A DNA stretch of 45,349 bases from Thermoplasmata archaeon (GTDB lineage Archaea > Thermoplasmatota > Thermoplasmata > Halarchaeoplasmatales > Halarchaeoplasmataceae). How positions within the stretch are numbered: position 1 is the first letter of the stretch; each line of letters opens with the position of its first letter. The notes below the pieces were generated by a model, which did no database searches, was not told the DNA's origin, and saw only the letters and a list, made by a program, of their open reading frames with translations. Below are positions 1,661 to 17,988 of this stretch, one piece after another. Both the position numbers and the translations under genes were made by a program. The stretch spans positions 1 through 45,349 of the forward strand of contig JAFDUB010000002.1 in assembly GCA_019594025.1 (NCBI GenBank), given 5' to 3'.

Positions 1661-1790
1661 GGAAGATGAGGTATTAATTACTTTTTAATTAGAGTCTTAG
1701 CATATCAAAATAGATTTAGGAGTACACGAATTGATTCAAAGGGGCAAAATACTTTATACTGTCGAGAATATTACATTGGCAAATTATAGA

Positions 1791-4700
1791 ATGATAAATG
1801 TTCCAACGGTGACCTATATGACAAACCGCAGAAGCGTACCTATATGCAAGATTTTTGGGCTAGTAATCGTAACCATGCTTTTACTGGGTGTAGTAACACC
1901 CAGTATATTGTCGACTGGAGGAAGCGATTTAGAGATGGAATCATCCTCCCCGGATGATTTCTTTCCTTCCGATATAATCGGAGATACATGGTATATTGAT
2001 GAAAACGAAACTTTAGAGGGGTCTGTAGACAGGAATATATTCTCTCTAGATGCCAACATCCAGATAAATTCAACTGGTACATTATTTATCAAAGACGCCA
2101 GCTTGATACTGTTGATAGATGGATATCATCCATGGAGAATAACCGTAATGGGTGGAGGAGACTTGGTGCTTCTCAACGGTACAATCAGTACATCGTTAAG
2201 GGACGATACTCTCTTGAGACCGTTCTTGAAGACCAATATAACCGCATATCAAGACTCATCCATAACACTGCTTCAAAACTCTTCTTTCAAATTCCCAGGT
2301 TGGGTTTACCTTGAAGGTGCCACCTTAACCATGAGGGAATCTAGTTTTGACCCGTTGGAATATGTACCTGATTTTGATTATACATGGGGTGTGTCCGATA
2401 AGAGTTTGGGTATCGAGGATAACAACGATTGCCCCCGGTTGATTGCCAATGAGGGATCACACGTTCTGATGGAATCTTCACAAATCAACAATCAGTATAC
2501 AAATCTTAATTTAGGCAGTATGTTTTGGGAACCTGAAGAAATAACTGGGGACTATGATATTACTCCTGAAGGAGATTATATTATAGAGCCTCAAGGAAAT
2601 ATACAGGTGGACGTTTGGGAATTGATCAATCAAAAATTCCCGGCACCAGATATCTACCCTTATCTCAACCCCTTTGATAGGGTAAGTGCGTTATACCTTC
2701 AGGTTGTTTATCGCACCGGAGCGAATTACACGACTAATGACGGCGTGTATTACGAGACCCCATATGAGGTAAAAGAGGCCTTCACTCTTGAAAACCAAGG
2801 TGCGTTCAGCCCCGAGGGAGATAATATATACGAAACAAGCATAAATCAGTTTGGTTTCGATGAAGATAGGTTCATCAAAAATCTCACTGTTACTTTGTCC
2901 AATTCGGAAGATTCTGGCGAAACTGATACAGAGATATACATTAGAACTATTCAATTATATTCCGCCTTCGACAACGATATACACATATGGGATTCAACAA
3001 TGACTGTTATAGATAGCGTTGTAGATATTGACTTTAATCCCAGCGATGTTGACCCACGTCCAGGTGTGACACAGCCTACCGATGATGCCACTTGGATGGC
3101 AAACGCGAATCAAAATCATCGAGTAATTAGATTGCTAAGCGATTCGCATCTCAGAGGTTATGGATTACAACCTACCGATGTTGACCCTCAACCCGACGGT
3201 GATCCTATAGTGGTAACAGATGAGTCGTCAAAGGTTGAAATTTACCGATGGGCTACCATCACACCAAGGGACAAAACCGGTACCCCTATTTCAGGAGTTC
3301 TTCTTAACTACACCAGAGGAGTGGATACTTACAACAACCCGGCTAACAATCTAGAGGCTTGGGATTACCTAAATAGGACCTATAACGTAATATACGATAC
3401 CGCCACAGGGCATTATGTTACAGATGAAAGAGGTGAAACGGTAATGTTTCTATTGAGTGATAACATCACTCATCCAAATGATTGGCCAAACAGTGAGTTC
3501 ACTGGCGAATACAAGCTGAGAGCACTTTATGAAGACGAGGAAGGTGGTGTGGATAAGAACGTCACCGAACGCTCCATAAGCCTACCGGCATTCCCCAACC
3601 TTAAGGAAGAAGCAAATCATATTGAGTTGGATATGGAATTTGACATGGAGATACCACATCCTGACCTTGCGATAGAGGAAGACGACATAGTTTTCCTGGT
3701 TGAAGGGCATGAGGTGAGCTACGTAACCGTTGGAACCAATGTGACAATACAGGTTACCGTTCATAACATAGGAACACTGGAAGCTAACGACATATTGGTA
3801 CACTACTACAAACCAGGAGAAGGACCGGATGATGTCTTGCCACCAGACCTAACGCTAATAGGGAGCTCAACTATAGATAATATACAGGAAGGAGAATCGG
3901 AGGATACGAGTGTTATATGGGCACCAGAGAGTTTCGGTTCCAAAGAGATATACGTTCACGTAGATCCTCATGGAGACATAATCGAACTCAACGAAACAAA
4001 CAATATTGCATCTAAGGTTTTAACGGTGGGAGAAAAAGCCAACCTGGTAGTCGATGAGATATTCTTTGACCCGTCAGCAGAGGTTATAAACGGAACCGAC
4101 GTATACATCGCGGCAGAAGTTGCCAACATAGGTGGTACCGATGTTTACGATGTCAACGTTTCCTTTTATCATGATACGGAATACATCGATACTAGGATAA
4201 TCGATCACCTACCGGGAAATATGACATTCATGATGACGGAACCCATACATTGGGACTATCCCGGACCGGGTGAATACGATATCACCGTGATAATAGACCC
4301 GAACGAGGAGCAAGATGAACAGGATCGGGAAAATAACGAGTTAACAAGAACCATCAACATATTAACTGAACCTGACCTCCTACCGGAGGATTTTTACCTT
4401 AGTCACGAAGAGATATACGACGGAGAAGTACTTACCATAGCAACGAAGGTCAGGAATCAAGGAGAATGGCCCTCTCAGGAAACTGGTGTTACGTTCTACG
4501 TAGATTGGGGTACCGAAACGGAAAATCTCATTGGAACCGTCTATGTTCCTGCTGTTGGAGCTGGTATGGTTTCTGACGAGCTTTCCATCGAATGGGAAGC
4601 TAAACTTATAGAATCTGAGCTTAGTGAGTTCCGAACCATTACGGTGATAGTCAACGAGCCACCTCTTGAGGATAGAGAAGTGATACGGGAAAATAATTAC

Positions 4701-7700
4701 GCCAACCAAACGGTAGAAATTCTGAATCCAGCTCACCTTTCCGTGATGCCGGAAGATATTACCTTCTCCACCGAGCTCTCACAAGTGAATCAACCTATGG
4801 AGATCTTTGCAGAAGTTTATAACACCGGCGGTGAAGACGTAGAGGTAACCGTGCGCTTCTTTGTAGGCGAAACCGTTATCGGGGACGATGTCATCAACGT
4901 TGTCTCACAGGGGAGCTCCACCGCTGTAATGCCATGGACCCCAACCACAAGAGGGAATCATGAGATTACTGTGATAGTTGATCCTGATGAAGAGGTACAC
5001 GAAGTTGACCGACGTTTCAACGAGGCGACCGTAATCAAACCTATATTTAGTGAAAATTACGAGTACGACCTAATAGTCAACGATGATAACACACCTGTTA
5101 CCCGTGGAGAATACAAATCTCCAGGTTTTGTCGTTGTCGAAGAAGGAGGAGAACTCTTTGTGCGTGGTGATCGCGAGCGTGTAGCCTTCGATATGACTCA
5201 GACCAGAGATAACCAATTCAGTATTATAGTACGAGATCAAGGTAGACTGGTCATAGATAATGCTATGATATTCTCAGAGTATCATTTATCTATACTAGTA
5301 ATGGGCTCAGGATCTGTCGAGATAGTTAACAGCAGTATAACATATGAGATGGTAAAGATAGATGCACAGGACAGTGCCAATGTACACGTTCAAGGTTCAA
5401 GTATTCGAGGAGCTGTATCCATGGTTTCAGGGAGTCTGAATACCTTCAGCAGCGAATTTACCTCTACCGATATACACATCAGTCCGGATGAAATACATGC
5501 CGTGAACACTACCTTCGAGGGCAACCTAGACGATTTCCATAACACTGTCGGTTCACTAACGGCGGTTGAAACCGGTGCTATAGGGATGACAGGAGATTCA
5601 TCTATTGAGATACTCAGGTGGTTAGAGATAAAAACAGTAAGTAACAGCAGTATACCTGTCGGGGGTACTGTTGTTAGTATATCTAGCCTGATTACCGATT
5701 ACACTGTTACAGGTACCTCCAACCCGGAGGGAGTAGTTTACCTAGCTGCTTTAACGGATATATTGACTCCTGATGAAACAACTTTTGTAGGGAACTACGA
5801 AATTACCGCCCACTACGCTGAAAACGTAGAAAACTACACCTATGGACCTGAACAGATCGCTTTACCCAACTACCCCTCCCCGCAGCATGTCATTGAGATT
5901 ACATTAAGATTCGAGGATTTAAGGATACCTGATTTAGCTGTTTTTGACGGGGAGTTCCAATCCAACATTACAGCGGTTACGGCAGGAAGAAGAGTGAGGT
6001 TCACAGTTACAGTACATAACCTAGGGATGGCGGATGCGGAAGATGTCAACGTGCGATTTTATCTTATAGGTGAAGATGAGGACGAACTCATAGGCACGTA
6101 CAACATAAACAGAATCTCTAGTATGGAAAACCAAACAGCAACAATTCAGTGGACAGCGACCATGACCGACGAGGATATCAGAGAGGAGATAAAACAGGTA
6201 AGAGTATGGGTCGATCCTGATGTACTTCCCTTAACTGATCCGAACCTAGGTAACAATGAAGCTTTTACACAGATAACAATAAGGTCGCCACCAAGACCTG
6301 AATTCGATCTAACGGATATCATAATTAGGGCCGAGGGAAGACCTATAGAAGATGACACTGTACTGGAAAGGGACGATTTAGACATCAGCGTGCACATAAT
6401 CAACCTCGGTGGAACGATTCTGAGAAATGCCAGTATAGAATTCGACTTCGACCATGACGGCTTCATTGCTAGAAACGTTACAGACATGCCTGTTGACCAT
6501 GTTTTGAATGTTACAGAAACGTGGACTATTGATGTGACTGGAGAAGTCACTATTAGTGTTACTATAAACACAACGTACGACAACATGGTCCTAACCCGAA
6601 CTATATTTGTAGAGGAAATGGCCATGCGCTTTTTGGATGTATCAGTACCTCTCGAAGCTAAAGATATGGGTGAAACCATAACCATTTTAGGGGACCTGGT
6701 AAGAGATATCGATGATAAACCTCTCAGAGGCATGACAGTCTTTGCATACCTTATAGATGAAAACGGCAACGTAGTTGCACAAGGTGAGGAAATAACCGGA
6801 GAGGATGGTTCCTTCCTCATCTCCTTGGTCACACCGGATAGAGGTGGAGATTACAGAGTAAGGCTCACACCGGACCACCCGAGAGGCGAAGAAGCAGAAT
6901 ACACATCTCATAGCTTCGAAGTTATTGACCCAGCCGAGGGTATACCTTTGTGGATGATAGCACTAATAATAATTATCGTCGTAGCGGGTAGTCTGGTAGG
7001 TATGATCCTGTACCTGAAATACAAAGGAGAAGGAGAATGGGTGGAATGCGGCGAATGTGGTTCTACCATACCAGCCGAGTCCAATAATTGTCCGAAGTGC
7101 GGCACTGTGTTCGAGATGGATACAGTCAAGTGCAGTGAATGCGGTGAATGGATATCTGCAGATACTCCTGAATGTCCACACTGCGGAGTAGTATTCATCA
7201 CCACCGGAGAGGAAGTCGAGGATTACAGTGAATCCATGAGAAAACAGTACGCAAAATATGTGAAGAAGAACAGAAGATGGGCAGAAAAAGATCTTGGCAA
7301 ACGTTTAACCAGAGAGGAGTTCTTGGGATGGTGGAAAGAGCAGCCCAGCTATCTAACCTTCGACGAGTGGCTTGAGCAGGAAGAAGCACGAAGAAAGAAA
7401 GGCGGAGTCGAGTGTCCACAGTGTGGAGCGTTGAACAGCGTAGACGATGCCCTTTGTCAGAAATGTGGTACAACTTTAGTGCAATTTACACCCAGCAGGA
7501 AGATGGCCGCAGAGCCCGATGAAGATATCCAGCTTCTTGATCTCGACGACATTGAGAAGATGGGGGATGAAGAAGAGCCAGAAGAGGAACCGGAAGAAGA
7601 GGAACCTCCAAAACGGGTCGGCAAAACGGTTAAGAAACGACCGAAGAGGGTGGCCAAAAAGGTGAAAAAGAAGGTAGTCAATAAGCCTGAAGAAGAATAA
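1791..7700 (+). CDS. Giant acidic surface protein with beta-helix-like and CARDB repeats, a single TM helix and a cytoplasmic triple zinc-ribbon tail
   Basis: Uninterrupted ~5.9-kb ORF. The track starts at TTG 1731; ATGs at 1791 and 1818 precede the hydrophobic signal/anchor ICKIFGLVIVTMLLLGVVTPSILS, so the start is uncertain. It has two beta-helix-like segments (~2040-2340, ~5130-5600). At least six CARDB-like Ig repeats lie at ~3660-5040 and ~5930-6600, e.g. PDLAIEEDDIVF..VTVHNIGTLEANDILVHYY, ANLVVDEIFF..EVANIGGTDVYDVNVSFY, PDLAVFDGEF..VTVHNLGMADAEDVNVRFY. The TM helix IPLWMIALIIIIVVAGSLVGMILYL sits at ~6940-7015. The tail carries three CxxC..CxxC pairs. Confidence 0.85.
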   Translation: MINVPTVTYMTNRRSVPICKIFGLVIVTMLLLGVVTPSILSTGGSDLEMESSSPDDFFPSDIIGDTWYIDENETLEGSVDRNIFSLDANIQINSTGTLFIKDASLILLIDGYHPWRITVMGGGDLVLLNGTISTSLRDDTLLRPFLKTNITAYQDSSITLLQNSSFKFPGWVYLEGATLTMRESSFDPLEYVPDFDYTWGVSDKSLGIEDNNDCPRLIANEGSHVLMESSQINNQYTNLNLGSMFWEPEEITGDYDITPEGDYIIEPQGNIQVDVWELINQKFPAPDIYPYLNPFDRVSALYLQVVYRTGANYTTNDGVYYETPYEVKEAFTLENQGAFSPEGDNIYETSINQFGFDEDRFIKNLTVTLSNSEDSGETDTEIYIRTIQLYSAFDNDIHIWDSTMTVIDSVVDIDFNPSDVDPRPGVTQPTDDATWMANANQNHRVIRLLSDSHLRGYGLQPTDVDPQPDGDPIVVTDESSKVEIYRWATITPRDKTGTPISGVLLNYTRGVDTYNNPANNLEAWDYLNRTYNVIYDTATGHYVTDERGETVMFLLSDNITHPNDWPNSEFTGEYKLRALYEDEEGGVDKNVTERSISLPAFPNLKEEANHIELDMEFDMEIPHPDLAIEEDDIVFLVEGHEVSYVTVGTNVTIQVTVHNIGTLEANDILVHYYKPGEGPDDVLPPDLTLIGSSTIDNIQEGESEDTSVIWAPESFGSKEIYVHVDPHGDIIELNETNNIASKVLTVGEKANLVVDEIFFDPSAEVINGTDVYIAAEVANIGGTDVYDVNVSFYHDTEYIDTRIIDHLPGNMTFMMTEPIHWDYPGPGEYDITVIIDPNEEQDEQDRENNELTRTINILTEPDLLPEDFYLSHEEIYDGEVLTIATKVRNQGEWPSQETGVTFYVDWGTETENLIGTVYVPAVGAGMVSDELSIEWEAKLIESELSEFRTITVIVNEPPLEDREVIRENNYANQTVEILNPAHLSVMPEDITFSTELSQVNQPMEIFAEVYNTGGEDVEVTVRFFVGETVIGDDVINVVSQGSSTAVMPWTPTTRGNHEITVIVDPDEEVHEVDRRFNEATVIKPIFSENYEYDLIVNDDNTPVTRGEYKSPGFVVVEEGGELFVRGDRERVAFDMTQTRDNQFSIIVRDQGRLVIDNAMIFSEYHLSILVMGSGSVEIVNSSITYEMVKIDAQDSANVHVQGSSIRGAVSMVSGSLNTFSSEFTSTDIHISPDEIHAVNTTFEGNLDDFHNTVGSLTAVETGAIGMTGDSSIEILRWLEIKTVSNSSIPVGGTVVSISSLITDYTVTGTSNPEGVVYLAALTDILTPDETTFVGNYEITAHYAENVENYTYGPEQIALPNYPSPQHVIEITLRFEDLRIPDLAVFDGEFQSNITAVTAGRRVRFTVTVHNLGMADAEDVNVRFYLIGEDEDELIGTYNINRISSMENQTATIQWTATMTDEDIREEIKQVRVWVDPDVLPLTDPNLGNNEAFTQITIRSPPRPEFDLTDIIIRAEGRPIEDDTVLERDDLDISVHIINLGGTILRNASIEFDFDHDGFIARNVTDMPVDHVLNVTETWTIDVTGEVTISVTINTTYDNMVLTRTIFVEEMAMRFLDVSVPLEAKDMGETITILGDLVRDIDDKPLRGMTVFAYLIDENGNVVAQGEEITGEDGSFLISLVTPDRGGDYRVRLTPDHPRGEEAEYTSHSFEVIDPAEGIPLWMIALIIIIVVAGSLVGMILYLKYKGEGEWVECGECGSTIPAESNNCPKCGTVFEMDTVKCSECGEWISADTPECPHCGVVFITTGEEVEDYSESMRKQYAKYVKKNRRWAEKDLGKRLTREEFLGWWKEQPSYLTFDEWLEQEEARRKKGGVECPQCGALNSVDDALCQKCGTTLVQFTPSRKMAAEPDEDIQLLDLDDIEKMGDEEEPEEEPEEEEPPKRVGKTVKKRPKRVAKKVKKKVVNKPEEE

Positions 7701-7732: not shown

Positions 7733-9095
7733 CTAACTTCAGTGCTAAGACCCCTTCGTTCACGGAGGGGATACAGCACGAGTTTTCCACTTTCGGCGCA
7801 CCCCCTTTTGTAGACTTAAATAGTATCTGATGCATTCAGTATTGACCGACTTAAAGGGTATTATAGAGAATCAAAGGAATAAGATCAATTAACACCTATA
7901 AATTCAAGATCAAAGAGCCAAATCAGGGTAAAGCATACAGCATGAATCAAACTGATAGACAGTATAGAAAAAGTGTTAACTTCTATCTTCATAAAATACA
8001 AGAAGAGGATGTGTGGTATATCGAGAACAAGGGTGGAAAGGATAAAACTAGGTTCCATAAAGGCAAACTTAAAAAGATTTACAGCGATGCTAGAGAACTC
8101 TTCGACCTTCCATCAGCACTCGTACAGACAGCTAGGGATTTTGCCAGGGAACAGTTCAAATCATGGAAGAATAACGATGACAACAAGCGATATCCACATT
8201 TCGACTCATTCATTGCCGTCAGGTATGATAAACGTACGATCTTTTTCAAACAGACTGATGGCCACTTCCAGTTATGGGCTAATATCGCTACTAACAACGG
8301 CAGGGTTAGAGTTCCTCTGACGAGCTGTGAGGAATACATGTCTGTACTCAAGGATGATATGGACCTATTTAAGTAGGCACATCTCATATTTGAAGACGGT
8401 GAGTTCTACCTGAACGTGATTTTTCTTCTCTGGAGATAAATTACAAGAGAAACGTAGAAGGTTCAGAGAGCTTAGAAGAGAATTAGGTAAGAAAAAGCTG
8501 TGGGGGAAACTAAGAGAGACCAAAGACCGTGAAAGCAACTATATTAAGGACATGAATCACAAAATCAGCAGGAAAACAGTTGATATAGCTGAGAAGTATG
8601 ATAATTCAGTAATCGTTATGGAGAAGCTAGAAGGGATAAGGGATAATACTGACAACTCAAAACAGCATAATTGGAAATTACACAACTGGCCGTTCGGTCA
8701 ATTACAGGAGTTCATCACCTATAAAGCTCACAATAGTTCAATTGCTGTGAGAAGAGTCCATCCAGCATATACTTCCCAAGTTTGCAGGGACTGTCTTGGT
8801 AAAACAGAGAGAGCCTCTCAAGCCAGGACAGTTTGTCAATCCTGTAAGAAGGAGTATAACGCTGACTGGCTCGGAGCCAGTAATATTGTAAGAAGATTGT
8901 TCGGCTATATGTCAAACAATCTGGGCGGCAGTGACTACTGCCCTGAACATGGTAGTGAAGAAACTAAAGGTGCCACAGGCTCCACCTTTGGTCTGACTAA
9001 AGGATTTGTGGCACAATTGCAGGTGAGCTAGCCATGAACCTCGAACTTCCTAAAAGGAAGCCTCTCCATTGAGGGAGAGGAGGATGTCACTGTAT
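7733..9095 (+). mobile_element. Decayed tnpB-only IS200/IS605-family (IS1341-like) element; boundaries approximate
   Basis: A disrupted tnpB is flanked by subterminal hairpins. The left hairpin is CCCCTTCG-TTCA-CGGAGGGG at 7751-7770. The right hairpins are CTTCC-TAAAA-GGAAG at 9046-9060 and CCTCTCC-ATTGAG-GGAGAGG at 9061-9080. No tnpA (Y1 transposase) is present. A TTAC at 7729-7732 could be a target motif, but that is speculative. Confidence 0.5.
7942..9031 (+). pseudogene. tnpB: TnpB (OrfB) RNA-guided nuclease pseudogene: in-frame TAG, frameshift and loss of the RuvC-I region
   Basis: The N-terminal ORF 7942-8376 ends at TAG. It continues in frame as AHLIFEDGEFYLNVIFLLWR and then hits TAA at 8437-8439. 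The C-terminal part resumes in another frame: LQEKRRRFRELRRELGKKKLWGKL..MNHKISRKTVDIAEKYDNSVIVMEKLEGIR..HPAYTSQVCRDCLG..CQSCKKEYNADWLGASNIVRR. That covers the RuvC-II Glu, the zinc finger and the RuvC-III Asp. The expected GIDLG-type RuvC-I segment after YLNV is absent. Confidence 0.8.
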
Positions 9096-9396: not shown

Positions 9397-10233
9397 TTAA
9401 GTGGAAAGCTCTATGTGTACCCTGGCTCGTGTAACGGTAAGGTCCGTTACATCTGGAAAATCAATCTCTATGTTGTTACCATCTACTATAAGACCGTCGA
9501 GTTCTAAAGTATCGTTAAACCATGTCCCCCAGGCACCCGGGTACGCTGTAATCATTTCAAAACTTACGTCGGTAACATTGGAATATGTTCTCCTGGTAGA
9601 GCCCCACAGTTCCGTTGTAATACCGACTACACCGGAACCGCCTGCTGATTCTCGGCGGGATGAGCTAATATCTATCAAAGTAAGAGAGATTGAATACGCC
9701 CCATCATACTCATCTATACGTATATGTGGTGGAGCTCTTAGAACTGCACCCTGGGGTTGTTCAAGGATTATAGCACCGTGTTCGTAAGCGATCGTCTGCT
9801 CTTCGAAGTAGCGGTTAAGGACCTGTAAGGATACGTTACCTTGACCTTCGTAACTTCTTTGAGTAGCTCCATCAAAAAAGGTAACATCAAAGCCACCCCA
9901 CCTAGGAGTCGATCTGATAACCCCTGGTGTCTGACTCGCAAACATCGGTACCCCCTCTGAACCTAAACGCATGGTTGAATATAGAGGATAATCTGTATAA
10001 TCATTCATGATTAGATTATCTATGTTCCCTTTTAGATAAGAAAAATGCTGCATCGCCTCTTCCGAATGATATGCTTCGTTGTCCTCCATCCATACCGGAA
10101 CATACTGTTGGGTAATCAATGAAAGCAGGCTAAGGAACACCAACAATGCCATTATGGTACCAACGGTGGTAGCTACACCTTCATTTGATTCTTTTAGTGC
10201 ACTTCTTTTAGGTACTCGTTTCAATCTTTTCAT
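9397..10233 (-). CDS. Pilin-like / FlaF-FlaG-like protein with a class III (type IV prepilin-like) N-terminus
   Basis: 278 aa. A charged leader MKRLKRVPKRSALKESNEG is followed by the hydrophobic helix VATTVGTIMALLVFLSLLSLI, which is the archaeal pilin_N pattern. A ~220-aa beta-rich domain follows. Its start overlaps the upstream ATPase stop (ATGA). Confidence 0.6.
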   Translation of the reverse strand: MKRLKRVPKRSALKESNEGVATTVGTIMALLVFLSLLSLITQQYVPVWMEDNEAYHSEEAMQHFSYLKGNIDNLIMNDYTDYPLYSTMRLGSEGVPMFASQTPGVIRSTPRWGGFDVTFFDGATQRSYEGQGNVSLQVLNRYFEEQTIAYEHGAIILEQPQGAVLRAPPHIRIDEYDGAYSISLTLIDISSSRRESAGGSGVVGITTELWGSTRRTYSNVTDVSFEMITAYPGAWGTWFNDTLELDGLIVDGNNIEIDFPDVTDLTVTRARVHIELST

Positions 10234-11879
10234 CTAGAACCCTCCTCTTCCATAAATTCCCGAACCATATCCATTACGGATTTTTTGTCCCTATAGTAGG
10301 AAGCCGTTATATGGGCAAAGTCACGATAGTTCATGATGTCCTTTTTATCCATATAATCTAAAACCATCTTACGACGTTTAACTTCCTTCTCCATCTCACG
10401 GGAGGTCCAATTCTTTTCCTGTGCCACACGGCTGTAAACATAGCTGTGTCCGCTGTAATTAAAAGAATCATCAGCGGGATTCCATGTGTAGGCCTTATTG
10501 GTGATCAATTCATCAGTATCCGGATCTACCCCGACTACCTCTGTTATAGCTTTTATTCTCCTTACCATCTTGGTACCGACCTTGACTTTCCCCTGCAAAA
10601 GCACGATGTCCAAAGCACCTACCAATGCCCTAGGTAGATTGATTGGATCGTTTTCCATCCTATTTACCATGGTCTGAACATCGTCGGCGTGGAAAGTGGT
10701 GTAAGCACTTTTTCCTGTAGCCATCGCCTGGAAAACAACGTAGGCCTCGGCCCCTCTAACCTCTCCTACCATGAGATACTGAGGACGCTGACGCAGTGCG
10801 GCCTGAAGTAACTCAAACATGTCGATCTCGCCGGCCTTCTTACCAGTCTCATCGGTCTCACCGAAACCACTACGGGTCAACAACGGTACCCAATTGTCAT
10901 GGGGAAGGTTCAATTCACGTGTATCTTCAATACTCACTATTTTCATCTGAGGAGGTATGAACAACAATATCGCATTGAGCGTCGTCGTTTTACCTGATGC
11001 CGTACCCCCACATATCAACATCGATTGGCCGGTTTCGATGGCAATCCATGCATAGGCCATCATCTCTGGATTGAAGGTTTTAAAATCTATTAGGTTGATT
11101 GGTGTATAGGGCTCCTCCTCGAAACGTCTTATTGTGAAAGAAGAGCCTTTCTGAGTCACATGTGTACCAAGGGTTTCTTGAAGTCTGGAGCCGTCAGGCA
11201 TGGTAGCATCGAGCATCGGATCCGCTACGGATATGTGTTTACCGCTACGCTGGGCTATCCACACAACGAAATTATCCAGTTCTGATGCATCCTCAAAAAT
11301 CACGTTGGATTTCATGGAACCGTACTTACGGTGAAAAACGAATATAGGAATCCCTACGCCGTCGCAGGAGATATCTTCCGGGTCTAAATCGTTCATTATT
11401 ACATCGATTGGGCCGTAGCCGAGGAAATCTCTTTTTATGTAATACTGGATTCTGTTCTCAGAAACAGGTCGGAGTTTGATATCCATATCGTTTAATATAG
11501 TGCGAACCTTTTTTTCTAGATGATCCTCCCGCCCCTTATCACCTTCTATTTTTACCAACTCAAATTCATCGATTATGCGGTTTTTTACAGTTTCTAATAG
11601 TGCCTCTTCGTCCTCATCAAGATCTGGTTCGATGACCTCGTAAATGTACTCGTTGCTTTTATTATCATAGCGTATACGCACGTAGGAATAAGGTTTTTCA
11701 ATAGGTGTTATCTCTATTTCTTTGACACTCTCTTCGACTATCTTTGGGATGGTAGTTATCGAGTCGCTTTTTGAACCTTTCTTTCCACCGGCCGGCATAT
11801 AAACCCTTTTAGGCTTATCGGTAACCCCTATCATCTTGAGTTTCTCTTTTATCTTATCTCCTATAGCAGCCATGTTCAT
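10230..11879 (-). CDS. Type IV filament assembly ATPase (ArlI/FlaI-PilB-TadA superfamily), copy 2
   Basis: 549 aa. Walker A GGTASGKTTTLNA, Asp box/Walker B IVSIEDTRELNL, GEVRGAEA and the His box TTFHADD are present. The FlaI-like N-terminal domain reads YSYVRIRYDNKSNEYIYEVIEP. Confidence 0.9.
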   Translation of the reverse strand: MNMAAIGDKIKEKLKMIGVTDKPKRVYMPAGGKKGSKSDSITTIPKIVEESVKEIEITPIEKPYSYVRIRYDNKSNEYIYEVIEPDLDEDEEALLETVKNRIIDEFELVKIEGDKGREDHLEKKVRTILNDMDIKLRPVSENRIQYYIKRDFLGYGPIDVIMNDLDPEDISCDGVGIPIFVFHRKYGSMKSNVIFEDASELDNFVVWIAQRSGKHISVADPMLDATMPDGSRLQETLGTHVTQKGSSFTIRRFEEEPYTPINLIDFKTFNPEMMAYAWIAIETGQSMLICGGTASGKTTTLNAILLFIPPQMKIVSIEDTRELNLPHDNWVPLLTRSGFGETDETGKKAGEIDMFELLQAALRQRPQYLMVGEVRGAEAYVVFQAMATGKSAYTTFHADDVQTMVNRMENDPINLPRALVGALDIVLLQGKVKVGTKMVRRIKAITEVVGVDPDTDELITNKAYTWNPADDSFNYSGHSYVYSRVAQEKNWTSREMEKEVKRRKMVLDYMDKKDIMNYRDFAHITASYYRDKKSVMDMVREFMEEEGSR

Positions 11880-12803
11880 TCACCTCATGAGGTTTAATCC
11901 TCCAAATAATATCCGAAGGGCGACAAAACCCATCAACGTTAGAATGAAACTGTGCTGCATACCGCTGGCTAGCTTACCTGTCTGTAACACCCCCGCAACA
12001 ATACCGTCACCTATGCCGTGGGCGAACACTGCAAGTACGAATATGAATTCGATGACAGGTATATTCTCTGTTCTTATTTCCGCTGCCCCTGCTCCCCCTA
12101 CGGGTGTATCGACATCATCGGTTTCCATGCCACCTCCGGCCTCTGCCATCTGTGCAAGAAATTGTGTGCTTAGGATGATAATAACGACGATAAAAACTGC
12201 GAAGGAGATGTAGATTACAGCGAGATAAGAAGTCATGGCAATCTTCTGTTCATCTTCAGATAGATGCACTTGTTTGGTATCCTGAGACACCATACTTAAA
12301 ACATCAGCCACGTTACCACCGGCATCGTTTGCTTTGATGATGATAGCTACAACCCTGTTCACAAGTGGTGTGTCGACCCGTTCCGAAAAGAGATTTAGAG
12401 CCTCAGCAGCGGGAACCCCCCAATCGATTTGTGCGGCCATTTTGTTGATCTCTGGTGTTAATTTACCGTATCTGCCCGATGCGGAAACCACTATAGCGTC
12501 TGCTAGTGTCATTCCGAACCTTCCGGCCTCCGCCACATCACGAAGGAAATCGGGCAAGCGCCTTTCGATCCTATCGATCTCCTTCTGTTTTTTATTTATA
12601 TAAAAACCGGTGGGGCCGAGGAAAAGTATCGATCCGATCATGGCCCAATCGATGGGGTCTAGAGGAATAGGTGCGGCATCTATGGCGTTCAGAACCATTA
12701 TAAAAAAAGCAGCGGCTGATATGACCGCGGAAAACATTATTACTTCCTTGGTCCTGCCGAGCTTCAACATTTTTTGTAATTGACTTTCTTCTTCGTATGG
12801 CAT
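11880..12803 (-). CDS. Type IV filament platform protein with a single T2SSF domain (TadC/EpdK-like, equivalent to the C-terminal half of ArlJ/PilC)
   Basis: 307 aa. An N-terminal TM pair is followed by a cytoplasmic T2SSF helical bundle (LPDFLRDVAEAGRFGMTLADAI..LVNRVVAIIIKANDAGGNVADVL) and C-terminal TM helices. The stop is immediately followed by the start of ATPase copy 2 (TGAATG). Confidence 0.8.
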   Translation of the reverse strand: MPYEEESQLQKMLKLGRTKEVIMFSAVISAAAFFIMVLNAIDAAPIPLDPIDWAMIGSILFLGPTGFYINKKQKEIDRIERRLPDFLRDVAEAGRFGMTLADAIVVSASGRYGKLTPEINKMAAQIDWGVPAAEALNLFSERVDTPLVNRVVAIIIKANDAGGNVADVLSMVSQDTKQVHLSEDEQKIAMTSYLAVIYISFAVFIVVIIILSTQFLAQMAEAGGGMETDDVDTPVGGAGAAEIRTENIPVIEFIFVLAVFAHGIGDGIVAGVLQTGKLASGMQHSFILTLMGFVALRILFGGLNLMR

Positions 12804-12810
12804 ATTTTCA

Positions 12811-13836
12811 CTAATCCTGGTTTATCAACCATATAATAAATATGAACCCTGCCTGGGCTCCGGGTATCATTATACCCACTATAGCGTAAAGGAAAGGTAT
12901 CGGATCTCCCGCGCCCATTCCCCCCATCAGGGCCATAATGGCCATTATGACCACAAGGAAAAGGGGAAATGCTACAACGACGGTTACAAAGGATTCCGCC
13001 ATCATACCCAGGGTTTCCATCTTCTGTTGGACTATAAGTTTACGGTTGTCCTGGTACTCCTTTAATTTAGATGTAAAGTATGGTTTCAATTTACCACCAG
13101 AACTTGAGGTGGTAATCACACCTTGTAAGAAGTCCCGGAAAGCTTCGGAAGGAGTTCTATCGGCGGCCCGTTGTAAGGCATTCAATATATCTATTCCCAA
13201 AAGTTCTGTATCCCTAGTTATCCATTCCGCTTCCTCCCTAACCTCTCCATAAAGAGGTTGTTTTGAAAGTTCTTTGAATATTAAATCAACATTTACATCC
13301 GCGGAAGACATGGCCGCGATAAAGCTCATGGCGTCGGGTAACTTTTTATCTATTTTTTTGGCACGTGAACTAGCTTTCATGTTCGGACTAAATTTCAAAC
13401 CGAAATAAGTACCGACCGGGGTAAGAACCGCCACAAGAATTCCCGATCCATAAAGGAATAATCCACCGCCAAGAAAGACGTCAAGGACCGGGCCTATAAA
13501 TATACCTGCGATTACCCCTACTACCATGGCAATGATCGTACTCATCCAAACATAGGATAAATACTCCTCTGACCTAATCTTCATATGGGCCTCCAGAAGG
13601 TCTTGTTCCAATTGTTCATCTTGTAGATTCTTACTCTTTACTATCGGACCCATTATATGCCAACAAAATTGTTTATAAGGAGATAAACGCAGGTACTCAG
13701 GCACCGCTGATTTGGGAAGTCTTACCAAATGAGGACCATAAGTTTCTATTCGATCACTTGGTTTAGCACGTTTTGTGGATATGAACTTATCTTTTTTGAA
13801 TCGTAATTTCTCAAAGGTATCCTCTATCTCAACCAT
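12811..13836 (-). CDS. Type IV filament platform protein with a single T2SSF domain (TadB/EpdJ-like, equivalent to the N-terminal half of ArlJ/PilC)
   Basis: 341 aa. TM helices flank a T2SSF-like bundle (LPDAMSFIAAMSSADVNVDLIFKEL..FRDFLQGVITTSSSGGKLKPYF). The start overlaps the ATPase copy 1 stop (TGATG). Confidence 0.8.
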   Translation of the reverse strand: MVEIEDTFEKLRFKKDKFISTKRAKPSDRIETYGPHLVRLPKSAVPEYLRLSPYKQFCWHIMGPIVKSKNLQDEQLEQDLLEAHMKIRSEEYLSYVWMSTIIAMVVGVIAGIFIGPVLDVFLGGGLFLYGSGILVAVLTPVGTYFGLKFSPNMKASSRAKKIDKKLPDAMSFIAAMSSADVNVDLIFKELSKQPLYGEVREEAEWITRDTELLGIDILNALQRAADRTPSEAFRDFLQGVITTSSSGGKLKPYFTSKLKEYQDNRKLIVQQKMETLGMMAESFVTVVVAFPLFLVVIMAIMALMGGMGAGDPIPFLYAIVGIMIPGAQAGFIFIIWLINQD

Positions 13837-15527
13837 CAGACCTCACCCCTTATAAGAGCTAGAGTCTCCTCTGGTTCTTTGTAATATGATGTCACTATTT
13901 TCGATATCTGTTTATAATCTATGTCCTCCTGTTCCACAAGATGCTCTACGATCTCAACTCTGTTGTTGAACTCGTTGTTCATCTCCTCCTGGGTCATGTT
14001 CTTCATTTCCATAATGATATCCTGATTGTAACTGTGTCCTTTATAAATGAAACTGTCGGATTTTCGGTCCCAATCGAAGACAGTATTTGTGACCAATTCG
14101 TCACTTTCTGGTTCAAACCCAACCAACTCGGTTATCTCCTGTATACGCCTTACCTCCTCGTCCTGTACCCTCGCAAAAGTCTGAATTATCACGAACGAAA
14201 GTGCAGTTAAAAGAACTCGGGGACAGCTGATAGGTGGATTTTCTAATCTGTGAACCATGGATTCAACTGAATCAGCGTGCATGGTACTGTAAGTGGTGTG
14301 ACCGGTTGCCATAGCCTGGAACATGGTATTTGCCTCTTTACCTCGCACCTCACCCACGATGATATAATCGGGCCGCTGTCTTAAAGCGTTTCTCACCAAA
14401 TCGTACATGTTGACCTCTCCAGCCGCCCTACCTCCACTCTTCTTCTCCCCACTACCGGTACGGGTAGTACTCGGTATCCAATTTTCGTGAGGGAGGTTTA
14501 TCTCACGAGTGTCTTCCAAAGAGACTATCTTTAAACCTGGTGGGATGAACAGCGTAGCTGCGTTAAGGGTTGCAGTCTTACCGCAAGCCGTACCCCCGGC
14601 AACAATCATAGACATACCGTTTTCAACCATAAGCCACATATAAGCAATCATCTCAGGAGAAGCTGTATTGTATTGTATCAGTTTTACAGGTGTAAATGGT
14701 TCTTCCTTGAATCGTCGTATAGTTATAGAGGAACCACGGGTGGATATCTCGTTGGCATAGGTGGCTTGTACCCTATGCCCCCCTCTTGTGGTTCCATCGA
14801 GGATTGGGTTAGAAACAGATACTTGTTTTCCACATCTCTGGCCTAGTTGAATTATAAAGGAGTTTAACACCTTTTCATCTTCGAATTTAACATCGGTTCT
14901 GATGGATTCGTATTTCGTGTGATAGATAAAAAGAGGTGTGTCCACACCATCACAGGATATATCCTCAACCATATCGTCACTCATGATTACATCTATAGGT
15001 CCGTATCTAACGTAATCTCTGAGTATGTAATATATCAAACGTTTTTTAGATTTCTCCTCGATATTCAAGCTTCTGCTTCGGATGTAACTCTCGACACACT
15101 CTTCGATATACTCTTCCTTATCTTTACGGGCCATATGTTCCCAATCGTAGGAGAGTGTGCGGTCAAGTGTGTCTTTGATTAGAGAAAGCCATCCTTCTTC
15201 CTTTGGGGTTAAACTCGGTTCGATCGCCTGATATATATACTCCTTTGTATTATCGTCATATATTATCCTAACATAACTGAAGGGGGGATGGATCTTAAAT
15301 ATGTCCTTCACCGTAATATTTTCGCGGTCTGTCTCTGGTAGCCGGGTATATTCGGATATCCATCCTCCAGAACCCGCTTTGACCCTGTCTCTGTTTTTAA
15401 AATCTTCTTTGGATAACGTAACCCTTCTTGGTTTATGAGAAAATCCCAAAGGAGACGTAACCAAATTTGAAAGTTTGGTTAAGATATTGCTCTTCTTTTT
15501 CGAAGTGGTTTTCCCTGTTTGAGCCAT
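13836..15527 (-). CDS. Type IV filament assembly ATPase (ArlI/FlaI-PilB-TadA superfamily), copy 1
   Basis: 563 aa and paralogous to 10230-11879. It carries FSYVRIIYDDNTKEYIYQAIEP, Walker A GGTACGKTATLNA, IVSLEDTREINL, GEVRGKEA and the His box STMHADS. All catalytic motifs are intact. Confidence 0.9.
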   Translation of the reverse strand: MAQTGKTTSKKKSNILTKLSNLVTSPLGFSHKPRRVTLSKEDFKNRDRVKAGSGGWISEYTRLPETDRENITVKDIFKIHPPFSYVRIIYDDNTKEYIYQAIEPSLTPKEEGWLSLIKDTLDRTLSYDWEHMARKDKEEYIEECVESYIRSRSLNIEEKSKKRLIYYILRDYVRYGPIDVIMSDDMVEDISCDGVDTPLFIYHTKYESIRTDVKFEDEKVLNSFIIQLGQRCGKQVSVSNPILDGTTRGGHRVQATYANEISTRGSSITIRRFKEEPFTPVKLIQYNTASPEMIAYMWLMVENGMSMIVAGGTACGKTATLNAATLFIPPGLKIVSLEDTREINLPHENWIPSTTRTGSGEKKSGGRAAGEVNMYDLVRNALRQRPDYIIVGEVRGKEANTMFQAMATGHTTYSTMHADSVESMVHRLENPPISCPRVLLTALSFVIIQTFARVQDEEVRRIQEITELVGFEPESDELVTNTVFDWDRKSDSFIYKGHSYNQDIIMEMKNMTQEEMNNEFNNRVEIVEHLVEQEDIDYKQISKIVTSYYKEPEETLALIRGEV

Positions 15528-15640
15528 ATAACATCACATACCTAGTATACCTAATTAACGTTTCTGTCGCTTACCTCGAAGAGGAGCGATGTTTGATTTT
15601 CACCTTTGAGAATGCATTAAATGCTATTTATAGGTGTTGG

Positions 15641-16201
15641 TTATTTTGCCTTTATCCAAGCTGACAACATCTTCTCACTATCGTCAGGCCCTCTCGCGTA
15701 TAATATATCCCCGGCACTTATAGTTGTTCCTTCGTCCGGACCGTATATCCAATCATTTCCTCTTCTTATAGCTATAACCCAAACACCGGTTTCTGTAGCG
15801 AGTTTAACATCACCTAGGGTCCTCCCATGAAGTGTCGAGCCGCTCTCGACTCTGTGCTTTAAAATAACTATGTCAGATTCATCCAAGCTCTTTCTAACAA
15901 CGGGATGGAGATCAATGTCTCGAAGCACTACATCCGCAATATCTAGAGCACCATCGGCGATCCTCTCAATGGAATCAGATATCCTCATGAGTATCAAACT
16001 TCTATCAAATGATTTATTGTCTTTGCAACCACCTAGTGCCGAGCGTATGAGGATCTCATGAAGTTTATCCACCCTGTCTTCAAGTTCGATAACTTCTTTT
16101 GCGATTTCTTTATTTTGATATATCAAGGCGGAGTATGCAAGGTCCAGCATAAGCTCTGACGTATTTTTCATCTCCAGAAGCACTCTATCCTCTTTGTTCA
16201 T
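15641..16201 (-). CDS. PhoU-like + TrkA-C (RCK_C) domain regulatory protein
   Basis: 186 aa. An N-terminal PhoU-like helical bundle carries SDSIERIADGALDIADV. The C-terminal RCK_C part reads GSTLHGRTLGDVKLATETGVWVIAIRRGNDWIYGPDEGTTISAGDILYARG. Confidence 0.75.
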   Translation of the reverse strand: MNKEDRVLLEMKNTSELMLDLAYSALIYQNKEIAKEVIELEDRVDKLHEILIRSALGGCKDNKSFDRSLILMRISDSIERIADGALDIADVVLRDIDLHPVVRKSLDESDIVILKHRVESGSTLHGRTLGDVKLATETGVWVIAIRRGNDWIYGPDEGTTISAGDILYARGPDDSEKMLSAWIKAK

Positions 16202-16857
16202 CTTATCACCTCGGACCAGGACATCTCCGCGTGGGCGACCTCTCTTACCTCTCTGTAACCTGATTCAACACCTCTTACTATCATAAGATCATTTTGCAAC
16301 AAACGTGTGTTCGCGTCGGGACCGAATATCCATCTGTTTTTCCTCCTGACCGCTATCACTCGGATACCGGTATAGGATTCGAGCATTAGTTGGCCTATGG
16401 TTTTACCGGCCATTTCGGAACCGGAGTATATAGAGACGGTGTGTATCTTTTCGTCGGCTTCAGAGAGTATATGAGGTAAAATCGCCCTCAGGTCTAGGTC
16501 CATGTCCAGAAGTTTTACCATGTCTTCGGCGGCGTCCGATATCTTCTCAGTGGCCGACGCCACCTGAAGAATACCTGTCATCTGTTCTGCATCATCCATG
16601 GACCGTGCACCGAGCATGCATTTCAAACGAATCTGGTACATCATCTTGTCCATCTCAGATTCAAGATGCCTGACTTCTTCAGCCAGTTCTCTGTTCTCAA
16701 AGGCTGCAGCCGCATAGGCTAAGTCCGTTATCAACTCGGTGGTATCCTTCATTAGAGTAAGGAGTTCCCTCACCGATGTTTGTTCATAGGGGATCTCCCC
16801 ATGCTCTTCTTCTAATTCTTTCTCTAACCTTGCTCTTCTCAAACTATCACCAACCAA
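16198..16857 (-). CDS. PhoU-like + TrkA-C (RCK_C) domain regulatory protein (paralog)
   Basis: 219 aa with the same architecture (TEKISDAAEDMVKLL; GKTIGQLMLESYTGIRVIAVRRKNRWIFGPDANTRLLQNDLMIVRG). The track start is TTG at 16857. An alternative TTG at 16842 overlaps the upstream stop. There is no ATG before MKDT, so the start is uncertain. Confidence 0.7.
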   Translation of the reverse strand: MVGDSLRRARLEKELEEEHGEIPYEQTSVRELLTLMKDTTELITDLAYAAAAFENRELAEEVRHLESEMDKMMYQIRLKCMLGARSMDDAEQMTGILQVASATEKISDAAEDMVKLLDMDLDLRAILPHILSEADEKIHTVSIYSGSEMAGKTIGQLMLESYTGIRVIAVRRKNRWIFGPDANTRLLQNDLMIVRGVESGYREVREVAHAEMSWSEVIR

Positions 16858-17390
16858 ATCATGAACACCAGCGCGACTATGCCTATGAAGTCACATGCGG
16901 TGGTCACTATAGGGATAACTATGTTATCCGGATCGAGATTAACTTTGTAAGAATATAAAGTAGTGAAGACGGTTATAAAGGTAATGGAAACCGTGGTTAT
17001 TGCACCGGCACCCAAAATAATATACAACAGCTGTAAGAAGGTGAGGCCTAAAGGAAGTGTGAGGCTTGACAATGAAACCCCCAGCGCAAGTCCGCCAAAT
17101 ACAAAAACACCCATTAGAAGGGTGATCAGTAAGTTATCTTTCACCTCGTCGTCAAACATATCCGATTCGATGTATCCGGTGTGTAAGCCTGAAGATAACC
17201 TGGCACCCAGCACCGCACCTAGATTACCACCAACACCGTTTAAAATAGGCACCAGGAATAAGAGTACGGGAAACAAGATCAGCTCTTCTTCGATTGATTC
17301 TAAGACATGACCGCCGGCTATACCTATGAAGGCCATCAAAGCCAAGAGTCCGGCACTTTCTTTGAATATGTTCTTCCAGTGATACCTCAT
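16839..17390 (-). CDS. MgtE-like divalent cation transporter, TM domain only
   Basis: 183 aa with 5 predicted TM helices. MgtE/SLC41-type signatures are LNGVGGNLGAVLGARLSS and IVIPIVTTACDFIGI. The N-terminal and CBS domains of bacterial MgtE are absent. Confidence 0.8.
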   Translation of the reverse strand: MRYHWKNIFKESAGLLALMAFIGIAGGHVLESIEEELILFPVLLFLVPILNGVGGNLGAVLGARLSSGLHTGYIESDMFDDEVKDNLLITLLMGVFVFGGLALGVSLSSLTLPLGLTFLQLLYIILGAGAITTVSITFITVFTTLYSYKVNLDPDNIVIPIVTTACDFIGIVALVFMIWLVIV

Positions 17391-17950
17391 AATAACAAAC
17401 CTCCGAATAGCACCGCATATCCGAACATTATGATCAAAGTCGCTATATCCCCTACGGTGGTCAATACAGGTCCACTGATGTTGTCCGGGTCGATCTTAAA
17501 TTTGATGGAGAACCAGATTATGGCGAAGGTAACCAGTAGAAGGACTATAGCGGAGGTAACACCGGTCGTCACCGATATCAAAGCGATAACCACTAGGATC
17601 CTAAAAGTGATCGTAAAGGGTAAAAAAAGACTGGTCAGCAGAAGGAAAACCGGGAAAAGGACGGAAACGAATAGGCTTAGCGACATCGTCCCTTTGAAGT
17701 TTTCATAGGTAACGTCAGACGTTAGACCTCCATCCAAAAGACCGAGATGCATGGCGGAGCCCAAACGGGACCCTAGTGCGGAACATATATTCCCCCTCAT
17801 GTCGATTATGGCTGGAACTATGATTATAAGGCCCGGTATGAGTTCGAAGATCTCGGCCATACTTCCAAGAAAGTAACCGGCTAAACTTCCCCCTAACACA
17901 CAAAGAAATAGGACCGGGAGTGTTTCAACCAGTACTTTCTTTCGATTCAT
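17387..17950 (-). CDS. MgtE-like divalent cation transporter, TM domain only (paralog)
   Basis: About 187 aa from the ATG at 17950 (track start TTG 17956). Signatures are IIDMRGNICSALGSRLGS and ISGPVLTTVGDIATL. It overlaps the next gene by ATGA. Confidence 0.8.
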   Translation of the reverse strand: MNRKKVLVETLPVLFLCVLGGSLAGYFLGSMAEIFELIPGLIIIVPAIIDMRGNICSALGSRLGSAMHLGLLDGGLTSDVTYENFKGTMSLSLFVSVLFPVFLLLTSLFLPFTITFRILVVIALISVTTGVTSAIVLLLVTFAIIWFSIKFKIDPDNISGPVLTTVGDIATLIIMFGYAVLFGGLLL

Positions 17951-17988
17951 GAGCAAACATATAAAATAGTACTAAAAAAGTTTGTGGG

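Follow-up and report, generated by a model that had tools for sequence, protein, structure and literature searches.

The 45,349-nucleotide (nt) stretch of Thermoplasmata archaeon contig JAFDUB010000002.1 analyzed here (the window) carries, on the minus strand at 9397-15527, an operon of five genes that encode two secretion-type ATPases (E1 and E2), the two halves of a membrane platform (Fa and Fb) and a pilin-like protein (P5). We conclude that this locus very likely encodes the assembly machinery of an adhesive type IV pilus of the Thermoplasmatota type, i.e., the CdiP type, which probably belongs to Clade 2 in the classification of Makarova et al. E1 and E2 are distinct orthologous lineages that have been retained within a single operon in at least four orders of the phylum. 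The annotation is thereby settled as a CdiP-type, probably Clade 2, pilus assembly operon and not as a new class of archaeal filament machine. What is added here is incremental: the phylum-wide layout, a conserved P5, a zinc-ribbon neighbor and a variant His box in E2.

Organization of the operon

The five open reading frames (ORFs) are translationally coupled head to tail, all on the minus strand, and form a compact operon in the order E1, Fa, Fb, E2, P5. E1 (13836-15527, 563 amino acids (aa)) is the first FlaI/GspE2-like ATPase, with a match to the Pfam domain T2SSE (E 8e-35). It is followed by Fa (12811-13836, 341 aa; T2SSF, E 9e-15), the N-terminal half of a platform protein of the TadC/ArlJ/PilC family, and by Fb (11880-12803, 307 aa; T2SSF, E 3e-17), the C-terminal half. 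The second ATPase, E2 (10230-11879, 549 aa), matches T2SSE (E 7e-31) together with PilB3_C, and P5 (9397-10233, 278 aa) is a pilin-like protein of the DUF7289 family (PF23960, E 3e-11).

Junctions between these genes are tight. The stop codon of E1 and the start codon of Fa share one base at 13836 (TGATG), a spacer of 7 nt separates Fa from Fb (TAG tgaaaat ATG), the Fb stop abuts the E2 start (TGAATG, 11880/11879), and the P5 start overlaps the E2 stop (ATGA, 10233-10230). Ribosome-binding sites resembling GGAGG or GGTGA precede Fa, E2 and P5, and none is seen ahead of E1. Overlapping or abutting genes with internal ribosome-binding sites fit the co-production of one complex. The gene upstream of the operon (PhoU/TrkA-C) ends at 15641, which leaves an intergenic leader of 113 nt (15528-15640, minus strand); a sequence reading places a TATA-like TATAAATA at 15625-15632, and this leader is probably the promoter region of the operon. 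A preliminary description of this DNA had reported five co-directional genes with overlapping or abutting stops and starts, in the order ATPase, platform half, platform half, ATPase and a pilin-like protein of 278 aa; reading the junctions bears out both statements, and the coordinates of the operon stand as first given.

Two divergent ATPases with an altered His box in E2

E1 and E2 are 44% identical over 536 residues. The NCBIfam FlaI model aligns with both over nearly its full length, N-domain included, and scores 412 bits with E1 and 437 bits with E2 (cut-off 550). For both proteins the best match in the PDB is Archaeoglobus fulgidus GspE2 (afGspE, 2OAP), at 407 bits for E1 and 412 bits for E2; the corresponding scores are 271 and 295 bits with the FlaI structure and 158 and 148 bits with the CpaF structure. 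Scores with the bacterial family models were well under their cut-offs: about 42 bits for both ATPases with the PilT family model (pilT_fam, cut-off 319), about 48-50 bits with type_IV_pilB (cut-off 676) and 141-145 bits with the TadA-family model (cut-off 373). E1 and E2 are nearer each other than either bacterial type (PilB, PilT). The Pfam domains PilB3_C and PilB3_N match E2 and its orthologs.

The catalytic motifs were compared in 74 E1 and 84 E2 sequences, those of the window included. Window E1 has Walker A GGTACGKT (its Cys is Ser in most orthologs), the Asp box EDTRE, Walker B VGEVRG and the His box TGH...MHAD. Four elements are invariant in both sets: the Walker A Lys, the E, R and E of the Asp box, the catalytic Glu of Walker B and the second His of the His box. 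The Asp-box Asp is likewise invariant in E2, and in E1 it is Asp in 72 sequences and Glu in two. With the scored catalytic residues kept in this way, both E1 and E2 look catalytically competent by motif. Of the two paralogs E2 is the more conserved, with 206 of 535 columns conserved at 95% or more against 175 in E1.

The first position of the His box sets the two lineages apart. It is His in all 74 E1 sequences, as in afGspE, FlaI and CpaF, whereas among the 84 E2 sequences it is Lys in 75, His in four, Thr in three and Arg in two, the last being two Thermoplasmatales sequences; in window E2 it is Lys (K390, a TGK variant). In PilB, the second His of this box coordinates the gamma-phosphate, and the first flanks a Thr that makes an inter-chain contact (PMC5424180). 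By analogy with PilB, then, the lineage-wide change in E2 would fall in an element for communication between subunits, and replacement of a residue beside the inter-chain contact fits an altered interface between them. The preliminary description had taken both ATPases to be intact with all of their boxes; this holds for Walker A, the Asp box, Walker B and the N-domain, and needs amending for the His box of E2, which is non-canonical.

The split platform

Fa and Fb contain one T2SSF domain each. On the ArlJ model of 555 positions, Fa aligns to 5-243 and Fb to 265-540, and the best ArlJ models give Fa 76 bits (cut-off 550) and Fb 65 bits (cut-off 400). The two proteins are only 21% identical. 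Complementary coverage of the model together with this low identity indicates that Fa and Fb are two halves of one platform, as first proposed, and not duplicates.

One Thermoplasmatales genome encodes an extended Fa of 538 aa in place of the usual ~320 aa (locus L087, 6001-7617), and similar database relatives of 468-537 aa exist (P0138, P0139 and P0141). The possibility that CdiPFa relatives of 535-538 aa represent an unsplit platform was considered and rejected for P0140, the one whose context was looked up: there the extended Fa is followed by Fb, and two ATPases flank the pair.

Conservation in Thermoplasmatota and age of the duplication

A pattern scan across GTDB species, each represented by one genome, revealed at least 592 stretches encoding an E2 relative, of which the best 80 were taken; synteny was analyzed by tblastn with the five window proteins in the 72 loci that had at least 4.6 kb upstream of E2. 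The ATPase-platform-platform-ATPase order, for which a survey of relatives had been suggested at the outset, was recovered in 71 of these 72 as a co-linear, same-strand E1-Fa-Fb-E2 module. These cover four orders (Halarchaeoplasmatales, Methanomassiliicoccales, DHVE2 and Thermoplasmatales), and separate contig look-ups show the same order. In the sole exception (L066, 6264-9807), E1 and Fb each fall into two tblastn segments; with two genes broken, a frameshift error in the assembly is likelier than pseudogenes.

Across these loci, identity to the window proteins is 52-85% for E1 orthologs and 56-88% for E2 orthologs. Database homologs of E2 with 60-88% identity are all labeled Thermoplasmatota, except for one Aenigmatarchaeota bin. 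Those at 75-88% come from hypersaline or soda-lake Thermoplasmata metagenome-assembled genomes (MAGs), including Candidatus (Ca.) Saliniplasma and Ca. Natronoplasma (Ca. Halarchaeoplasmatales), and those at ~60-67% from Methanomassiliicoccales, DHVE2 and other Thermoplasmatota. The window itself comes from a halophile of the class Thermoplasmata, probably one of Ca. Halarchaeoplasmatales. A locus labeled Candidatus Aenigmatarchaeota (L012, JBKHKA010000008.1) has the module at 71-75% ATPase identity with P5 downstream; its bin label is probably wrong or the contig mis-binned.

In a neighbor-joining tree with 200 bootstraps, the core E1 sequences formed one clade (193/200) and the core E2 sequences another (200/200); the two were sisters to the exclusion of afGspE (166/200). 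Against profiles of the core sequences, afGspE gains 15 bits more with E2 than with E1. In the maximum-likelihood tree of Makarova et al., the two ATPases of Aciduliprofundum boonei fall in different sub-branches that contain Archaeoglobales (PMC4858521). Separate, supported clades across orders and the retention of catalytic residues point to an old duplication with both copies under purifying selection, and judged from these sequences the duplication is older than the sampled orders of Thermoplasmatota.

Counterparts in A. boonei and C. divulgatum

The arrangement found in the window has been described before. In A. boonei, Makarova et al. (2016) reported "two distinct ATPases ... in the same locus" (PMC4858521). 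Their Suppl. Table S4 lists the locus of strain T469 (GI 289595683-289595688) as an arCOG02911 predicted pilin, a FlaI-type ATPase, TadC, TadC and a second FlaI-type ATPase, followed in convergent orientation by an arCOG01917 protein of 1503 aa that carries a signal peptide and is annotated as "Zn-ribbon domain containing protein". Their census places both ATPases in Clade 2 and the archaellum at a separate locus (PMC4858521). In Cuniculiplasma divulgatum, Golyshina et al. (2016) found the ATPases CSP5_0712 and CSP5_0715 flanking the TadC homologs CSP5_0713-14 and remarked on the likeness of this locus to that of Aciduliprofundum (PMC5155288). The C. divulgatum pilus has since been solved by electron cryo-microscopy (ISME J 2025, PMC12448462). 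It is a glycosylated adhesive pilus, CdiP, whose machinery comprises CdiPE1, CdiPFa, CdiPFb and CdiPE2 and whose pilins are encoded ~500 kb away; no twitching was seen in live-cell tracking (PMC12448462).

Window Fa aligns colinearly with the CdiPFa part of the published platform sequence (36% identity, E 7e-41) and Fb with the CdiPFb part (34% identity, E 1e-40). The ATPase-Fa-Fb-ATPase cluster also recurs around database relatives of CdiPFa, namely in a Cuniculiplasma-like MAG, Caldiplasma sukawensis and one further Thermoplasmatales genome. The Fa/Fb alignments, the order within these clusters and the profile classes of the ATPases (below) together make the window operon a positional ortholog of the CdiP machinery, in which E1 corresponds to CdiPE1 and A. 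boonei GI 289595684, and E2 to CdiPE2 and GI 289595687.

Several points weigh against reading the window as a CdiP-type machine that makes use of two motors. A split platform works with a single ATPase in Tad and Epd systems, so that the split in itself does not require two motors. The CdiPFa/b query had been machine-read from a supplementary PDF, and the closest database protein is 88% identical to it. Neighbor joining failed to place the fast-evolving ATPases of Thermoplasmatales, and with these included the monophyly of E1 and E2 was lost. For these copies we therefore used differences in score between profile hidden Markov models of the core E1 and E2 sequences, by which the first ATPase of Thermoplasmatales is of the E1 type by +45 to +66 bits and the second of the E2 type by +69 to +87 bits. 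Finally, in the only cultured example the second ATPase is called "enigmatic" by the authors of the 2025 study (PMC12448462).

The window and CdiP share the order of ATPase, N-terminal platform half, C-terminal platform half and ATPase, and in neither are major pilins found next to the machinery. They differ in that the window adds P5 and a convergent giant zinc-ribbon gene, neither of which is found beside the module in the Thermoplasmatales loci examined. In addition, the ATPases are distant (39-44% identity), the C. divulgatum host is an acidophile and that of the window a halophile, and the window system is known from genes alone. A. boonei is closer in layout, since it has the same six-gene architecture, with a pilin-like gene and a convergent large Zn-ribbon protein; loci in DHVE2 MAGs (L078 and L082), which share the layout of the window, are ~58-61% identical to its ATPases. 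The pilin-like gene precedes E1 in A. boonei, as it does in most Thermoplasmatota, whereas in the halophilic clade of the window it follows E2. Unlike in A. boonei, the space between E2 and the giant gene is occupied in the window by P5 and a TnpB fragment.

The preliminary description had implied that the two-ATPase layout is novel among archaeal filament machines. That claim does not survive: the arrangement was already on record for A. boonei, C. divulgatum and CdiP, occurs in 71 of 72 loci and is thus largely the described norm for a characterized archaeal pilus class. The 2025 study termed it "unique" and an "outlier" (PMC12448462); instead, every one of the four Thermoplasmatota orders sampled conserves it.

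Relation to other filament systems

The probable Clade 2 (PilB3/GspE2-like) placement draws on the similarity of the ATPases and, indirectly, on the published census, which contains the orthologous A. boonei pair. The PilB3-PilC3 system of Haloferax volcanii and the afGspE system resemble the window locus in the best structure match (afGspE), in the PilB3 domains and, as it seems, in having pilins in trans. The signature of Clade 2 is an all-beta arCOG02911-type pilin of ~250-550 aa in the locus. A locus of the Haloferax or Archaeoglobus type has a single ATPase with an unsplit platform, whereas the window has two ATPases and a split one.

Likeness to Epd and Tad, suggested by the preliminary description, holds for the platform and fails for the ATPases. 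Methanococcus maripaludis Epd (EpdJ/EpdK/EpdL) has a platform split into two single-T2SSF proteins and an ATPase with the FlaI-like modular fold, and the bacterial Tad system (TadB/TadC/CpaF) shares both features. Each of these systems has a single ATPase, and the window has two. Epd belongs to Clade 1 of Makarova et al., whereas the A. boonei orthologs of the window ATPases are in Clade 2, and the window ATPases match CpaF at 148-158 bits as against 407-412 bits for afGspE. Pfam scans of window ORFs of at least 110 aa, with a scan for class III-like N-termini (below), found no Epd pilins, EppA or Tad accessory genes (TadZ/CpaE, RcpA secretin, Flp pilin). Bacterial type IVa systems, with PilB and PilT (and PilU), are similar in that more than one ATPase of one superfamily serves one filament system. 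PilT and PilU differ in lacking a long N-terminal domain and in forming their own clade, and in the window, unlike in PilB/PilT systems, both ATPase genes flank the platform within one operon.

An archaellum operon, or a remnant of one, is a reading suggested by the fact that FlaI and ArlJ are the best-scoring NCBIfam models and that some databases label homologs "flagellar protein FlaI/FlaJ". We consider it exceedingly improbable. Scores fall below the equivalog cut-offs (ATPases 412/437 vs 550; Fa 76 vs 550 and Fb 65 vs 400 bits), afGspE is a far better match than FlaI, A. boonei carries a separate archaellum locus, and neither the window nor the surroundings of the module in relatives contain an archaellin or ArlC/D/E/F/G/H/X. 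The sub-cut-off scores, together with the lack of archaellins and accessory genes, effectively refute this reading.

P5 and the search for pilins

The N-terminus of P5 resembles a class III signal sequence (EG followed by VATTVGTIMALLVF), and the motif [D/E]xG followed by VA(S/T)TVGTIMAL is nearly invariant in its relatives. An AlphaFold2 model (predicted local distance difference test score, pLDDT, 88) has a helix at 17-77 (~60 residues) followed by an all-beta domain, which is the "lollipop" layout of pilins. Foldseek found no match to this model in the PDB at E <= 1e-3, and hhalign comparison of the P5 family with O. meridianum ArlF and the pilin CdiPB gave nothing significant, with only the cleavage-site region aligned. 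Because relatives were not detectable in the PDB, ArlF or CdiPB, P5 is called pilin-like from its architecture alone. A literature search on DUF7289 returned nothing relevant.

Of the 72 loci, 66 have P5 next to the four-gene module: in 52 it precedes E1, and in the other 14, which constitute the halophilic clade of the window, it follows E2. No P5 accompanies the module in the Thermoplasmatales loci examined. With its 278 aa, N-terminal helix and all-beta head, the protein resembles A. boonei arCOG02911 in position and architecture, and P5 is therefore probably a minor pilin of the arCOG02911 type found in Clade 2 systems.

The preliminary description had noted the absence of a prepilin peptidase, small pilins, archaellins and Arl accessory genes from the window, and our scans agree. 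No Peptidase_A24, Pilin_N, archaellin or ArlC/D/E/H/X was found by Pfam scans of window ORFs of at least 110 aa; three such ORFs outside the scan lie inside or overlap larger annotated genes, and two ORFs, of 119 and 144 aa, had no Pfam match. When all ORFs of at least 50 aa were scanned for class III-like N-termini, P5 alone was pilin-like. Lacking a place in the 45-kb window, the major pilins and the prepilin peptidase would have to be encoded elsewhere in the genome; pilins are encoded away from the machinery in C. divulgatum and Haloferax as well (PMC12448462).

A convergent giant protein with a zinc-ribbon tail

A giant surface-protein gene adjoins the operon, as had been remarked before, and this adjacency is conserved. 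In the window it occupies 1731-7700 on the plus strand (1989-aa ORF, likely start ATG 1818) and encodes a type I membrane protein with matches to Pfam CARDB, DZR and Zn_ribbon_3. The protein has a signal or anchor sequence, an extracellular part with five CARDB domains and DUF11, a single transmembrane helix at about residues 1731-1765 and a cytoplasmic tail of ~220 aa with six CxxC motifs (a triple zinc ribbon). Among the 62 loci that extend 3 kb or more downstream, 49 have a homolog of the transmembrane helix plus tail directly behind E2 on the other strand; of 58 hits, 57 are convergent, at a median of 477 bp from the E2 stop.

The ectodomain varies in length. Complete ORFs range from 434 to 2486 aa, mostly ~1000-2500 aa, and the two shortest come from loci in which further genes seem to be frameshifted as well. 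The tail is constant (~200-270 aa, with six CxxC in most). The Thermoplasmatales loci examined lack the zinc-ribbon neighbor beside the module, and conservation of the remaining flanking genes is limited to close relatives. The giant protein is the arCOG01917 gene of the A. boonei table, where the 2016 census did not mark it as a pilus component (PMC4858521). From synteny we infer that it may be functionally tied to the pilus machine. A literature search combining CARDB, double zinc ribbon and pili returned nothing relevant.

Between the giant CARDB gene and the operon, a 159-aa ORF (8552-9031, plus strand) matches only the TNB domain of Cas12f1-like/TnpB proteins (E 5e-16). It appears to be a probable fragment of an IS200/IS605-type TnpB and was found in no related locus.

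Why two motors?

In the mechanism that we propose, prepilins encoded in trans would be cleaved by a PibD-type peptidase, and a heteromeric Fa/Fb platform, turned or pushed by ATP hydrolysis, would lift them from the membrane into the filament, with P5 acting as a minor or priming pilin. On balance, we favor a machine in which both ATPases act on the single platform in a non-redundant manner. A tentative version of this idea is that E1 and E2 are a sub-functionalized pair jointly needed for assembly, either as a mixed ring or as two rings that dock in turn; in the alternate-docking version, E1 would pair with Fa and E2 with Fb. We slightly favor such a jointly required pair over a division into extension and retraction because no twitching was seen, neither paralog is PilT-like and single ATPases are reported to drive both directions in the Tad and Aap pili.

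Separate motors for extension and retraction, after the model of bacterial PilB and PilT and as first proposed in the preliminary description, would explain why two intact and divergent ATPases are kept together in all orders sampled, and the family-wide change in E2 lies in a His box, a motif tied to cooperativity between chains. To our knowledge, however, bacterial pilB and pilT are not normally coupled in one operon around a platform gene. In addition, both paralogs here are full-length and FlaI/GspE2-like with an N-domain, at ~42 bits on the PilT model against a cut-off of 319, and a single ATPase (CpaF) is reported to serve both directions in Tad. The same analogy to PilB and PilT was raised by the ISME J authors, but C. 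divulgatum, with the orthologous pair, does not twitch, and a single ATPase is reported for both directions in Aap pili (PMC12448462). All in all, we regard this division of labor as rather unlikely. An obligate hetero-hexamer, with E1 and E2 in one mixed ring (e.g., 3+3) beneath Fa/Fb, appears about equally doubtful. Strict 1:1 co-occurrence in one operon of overlapping or abutting genes would fit it, as would replacement in E2 of the first His-box His, the residue beside the PilB inter-subunit contact; yet each paralog keeps all residues for a self-sufficient active site, the arginine-rich region included, and we know of no mixed ring in this ATPase superfamily.

It is less likely still that the two motors serve two substrates, for example, the major pilus on the one hand and P5 and minor pilins, another pilin set or the giant zinc-ribbon protein on the other. 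P5 and the giant CARDB/zinc-ribbon protein are indeed conserved neighbors, but a single (split) platform is available to the two motors, both ATPases are retained in Thermoplasmatales, which have neither P5 nor the zinc-ribbon neighbor beside the module, and synteny alone ties the giant protein to the machine. As for the view that one ATPase copy is a recent or decaying duplicate without a function of its own, we give it almost no credence. No support for it was found; the nearest is the slightly lower conservation of E1 (175 vs 206 of 535 columns). Against it, the copies are 44% identical and not near-identical, core E1 and E2 form separate supported clades, Thermoplasmatales copies sort by profile, and the scored catalytic residues are kept. 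The only disrupted locus of the 72 (L066) has a broken Fb as well. Clade support and residue conservation thus refute this reading, in line with the original impression that neither ATPase is degenerate.

In a more extended model, the six genes would form one machine with two sub-functionalized ATPases, a split platform, a DUF7289 priming pilin and a giant adhesin whose zinc-ribbon tail docks onto the motor. We consider this combination improbable as a whole. If it were true, pilus assembly would be physically coupled to a cell-envelope anchor or adhesin in Thermoplasmatota, one ATPase would perhaps be specialized for the adhesin, and the altered His box of E2 would mark a distinct motor, i.e., a hetero-ring partner or one for disassembly or cargo. 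The question of why an apparently non-twitching pilus keeps two motors now spans the whole phylum, and the His-box Lys of E2 and the zinc-ribbon tail offer concrete handles on it.

Other genes in the window

The window is rich in cell-envelope genes. A 2154-aa protein (36085-42549, minus strand) combines an N-terminal STT3/AglB oligosaccharyltransferase with a long run of CarboxypepD_reg/Ig-like repeats, and genes for a UDP-GlcNAc 2-epimerase and a GT4-like glycosyltransferase are located beside it (33334-35212 nearby); this region may be an N-glycosylation locus for surface proteins and pilins. Two further surface proteins were identified, one of 962 aa (18368-21256, plus strand) with CarboxypepD_reg, PKD and CARDB domains and one of 256 aa (35318-36088, minus strand) with a weak CARDB match. 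Immediately upstream of the operon (15641-17956, minus strand), four overlapping genes encode two PhoU+TrkA-C proteins (186 and 219 aa) and two proteins with only the MgtE transmembrane domain (183 and 189 aa). This block may encode an MgtE-like Mg2+ channel in split form whose regulatory subunits are separate proteins, and it is conserved in the closest 9-10 loci only.

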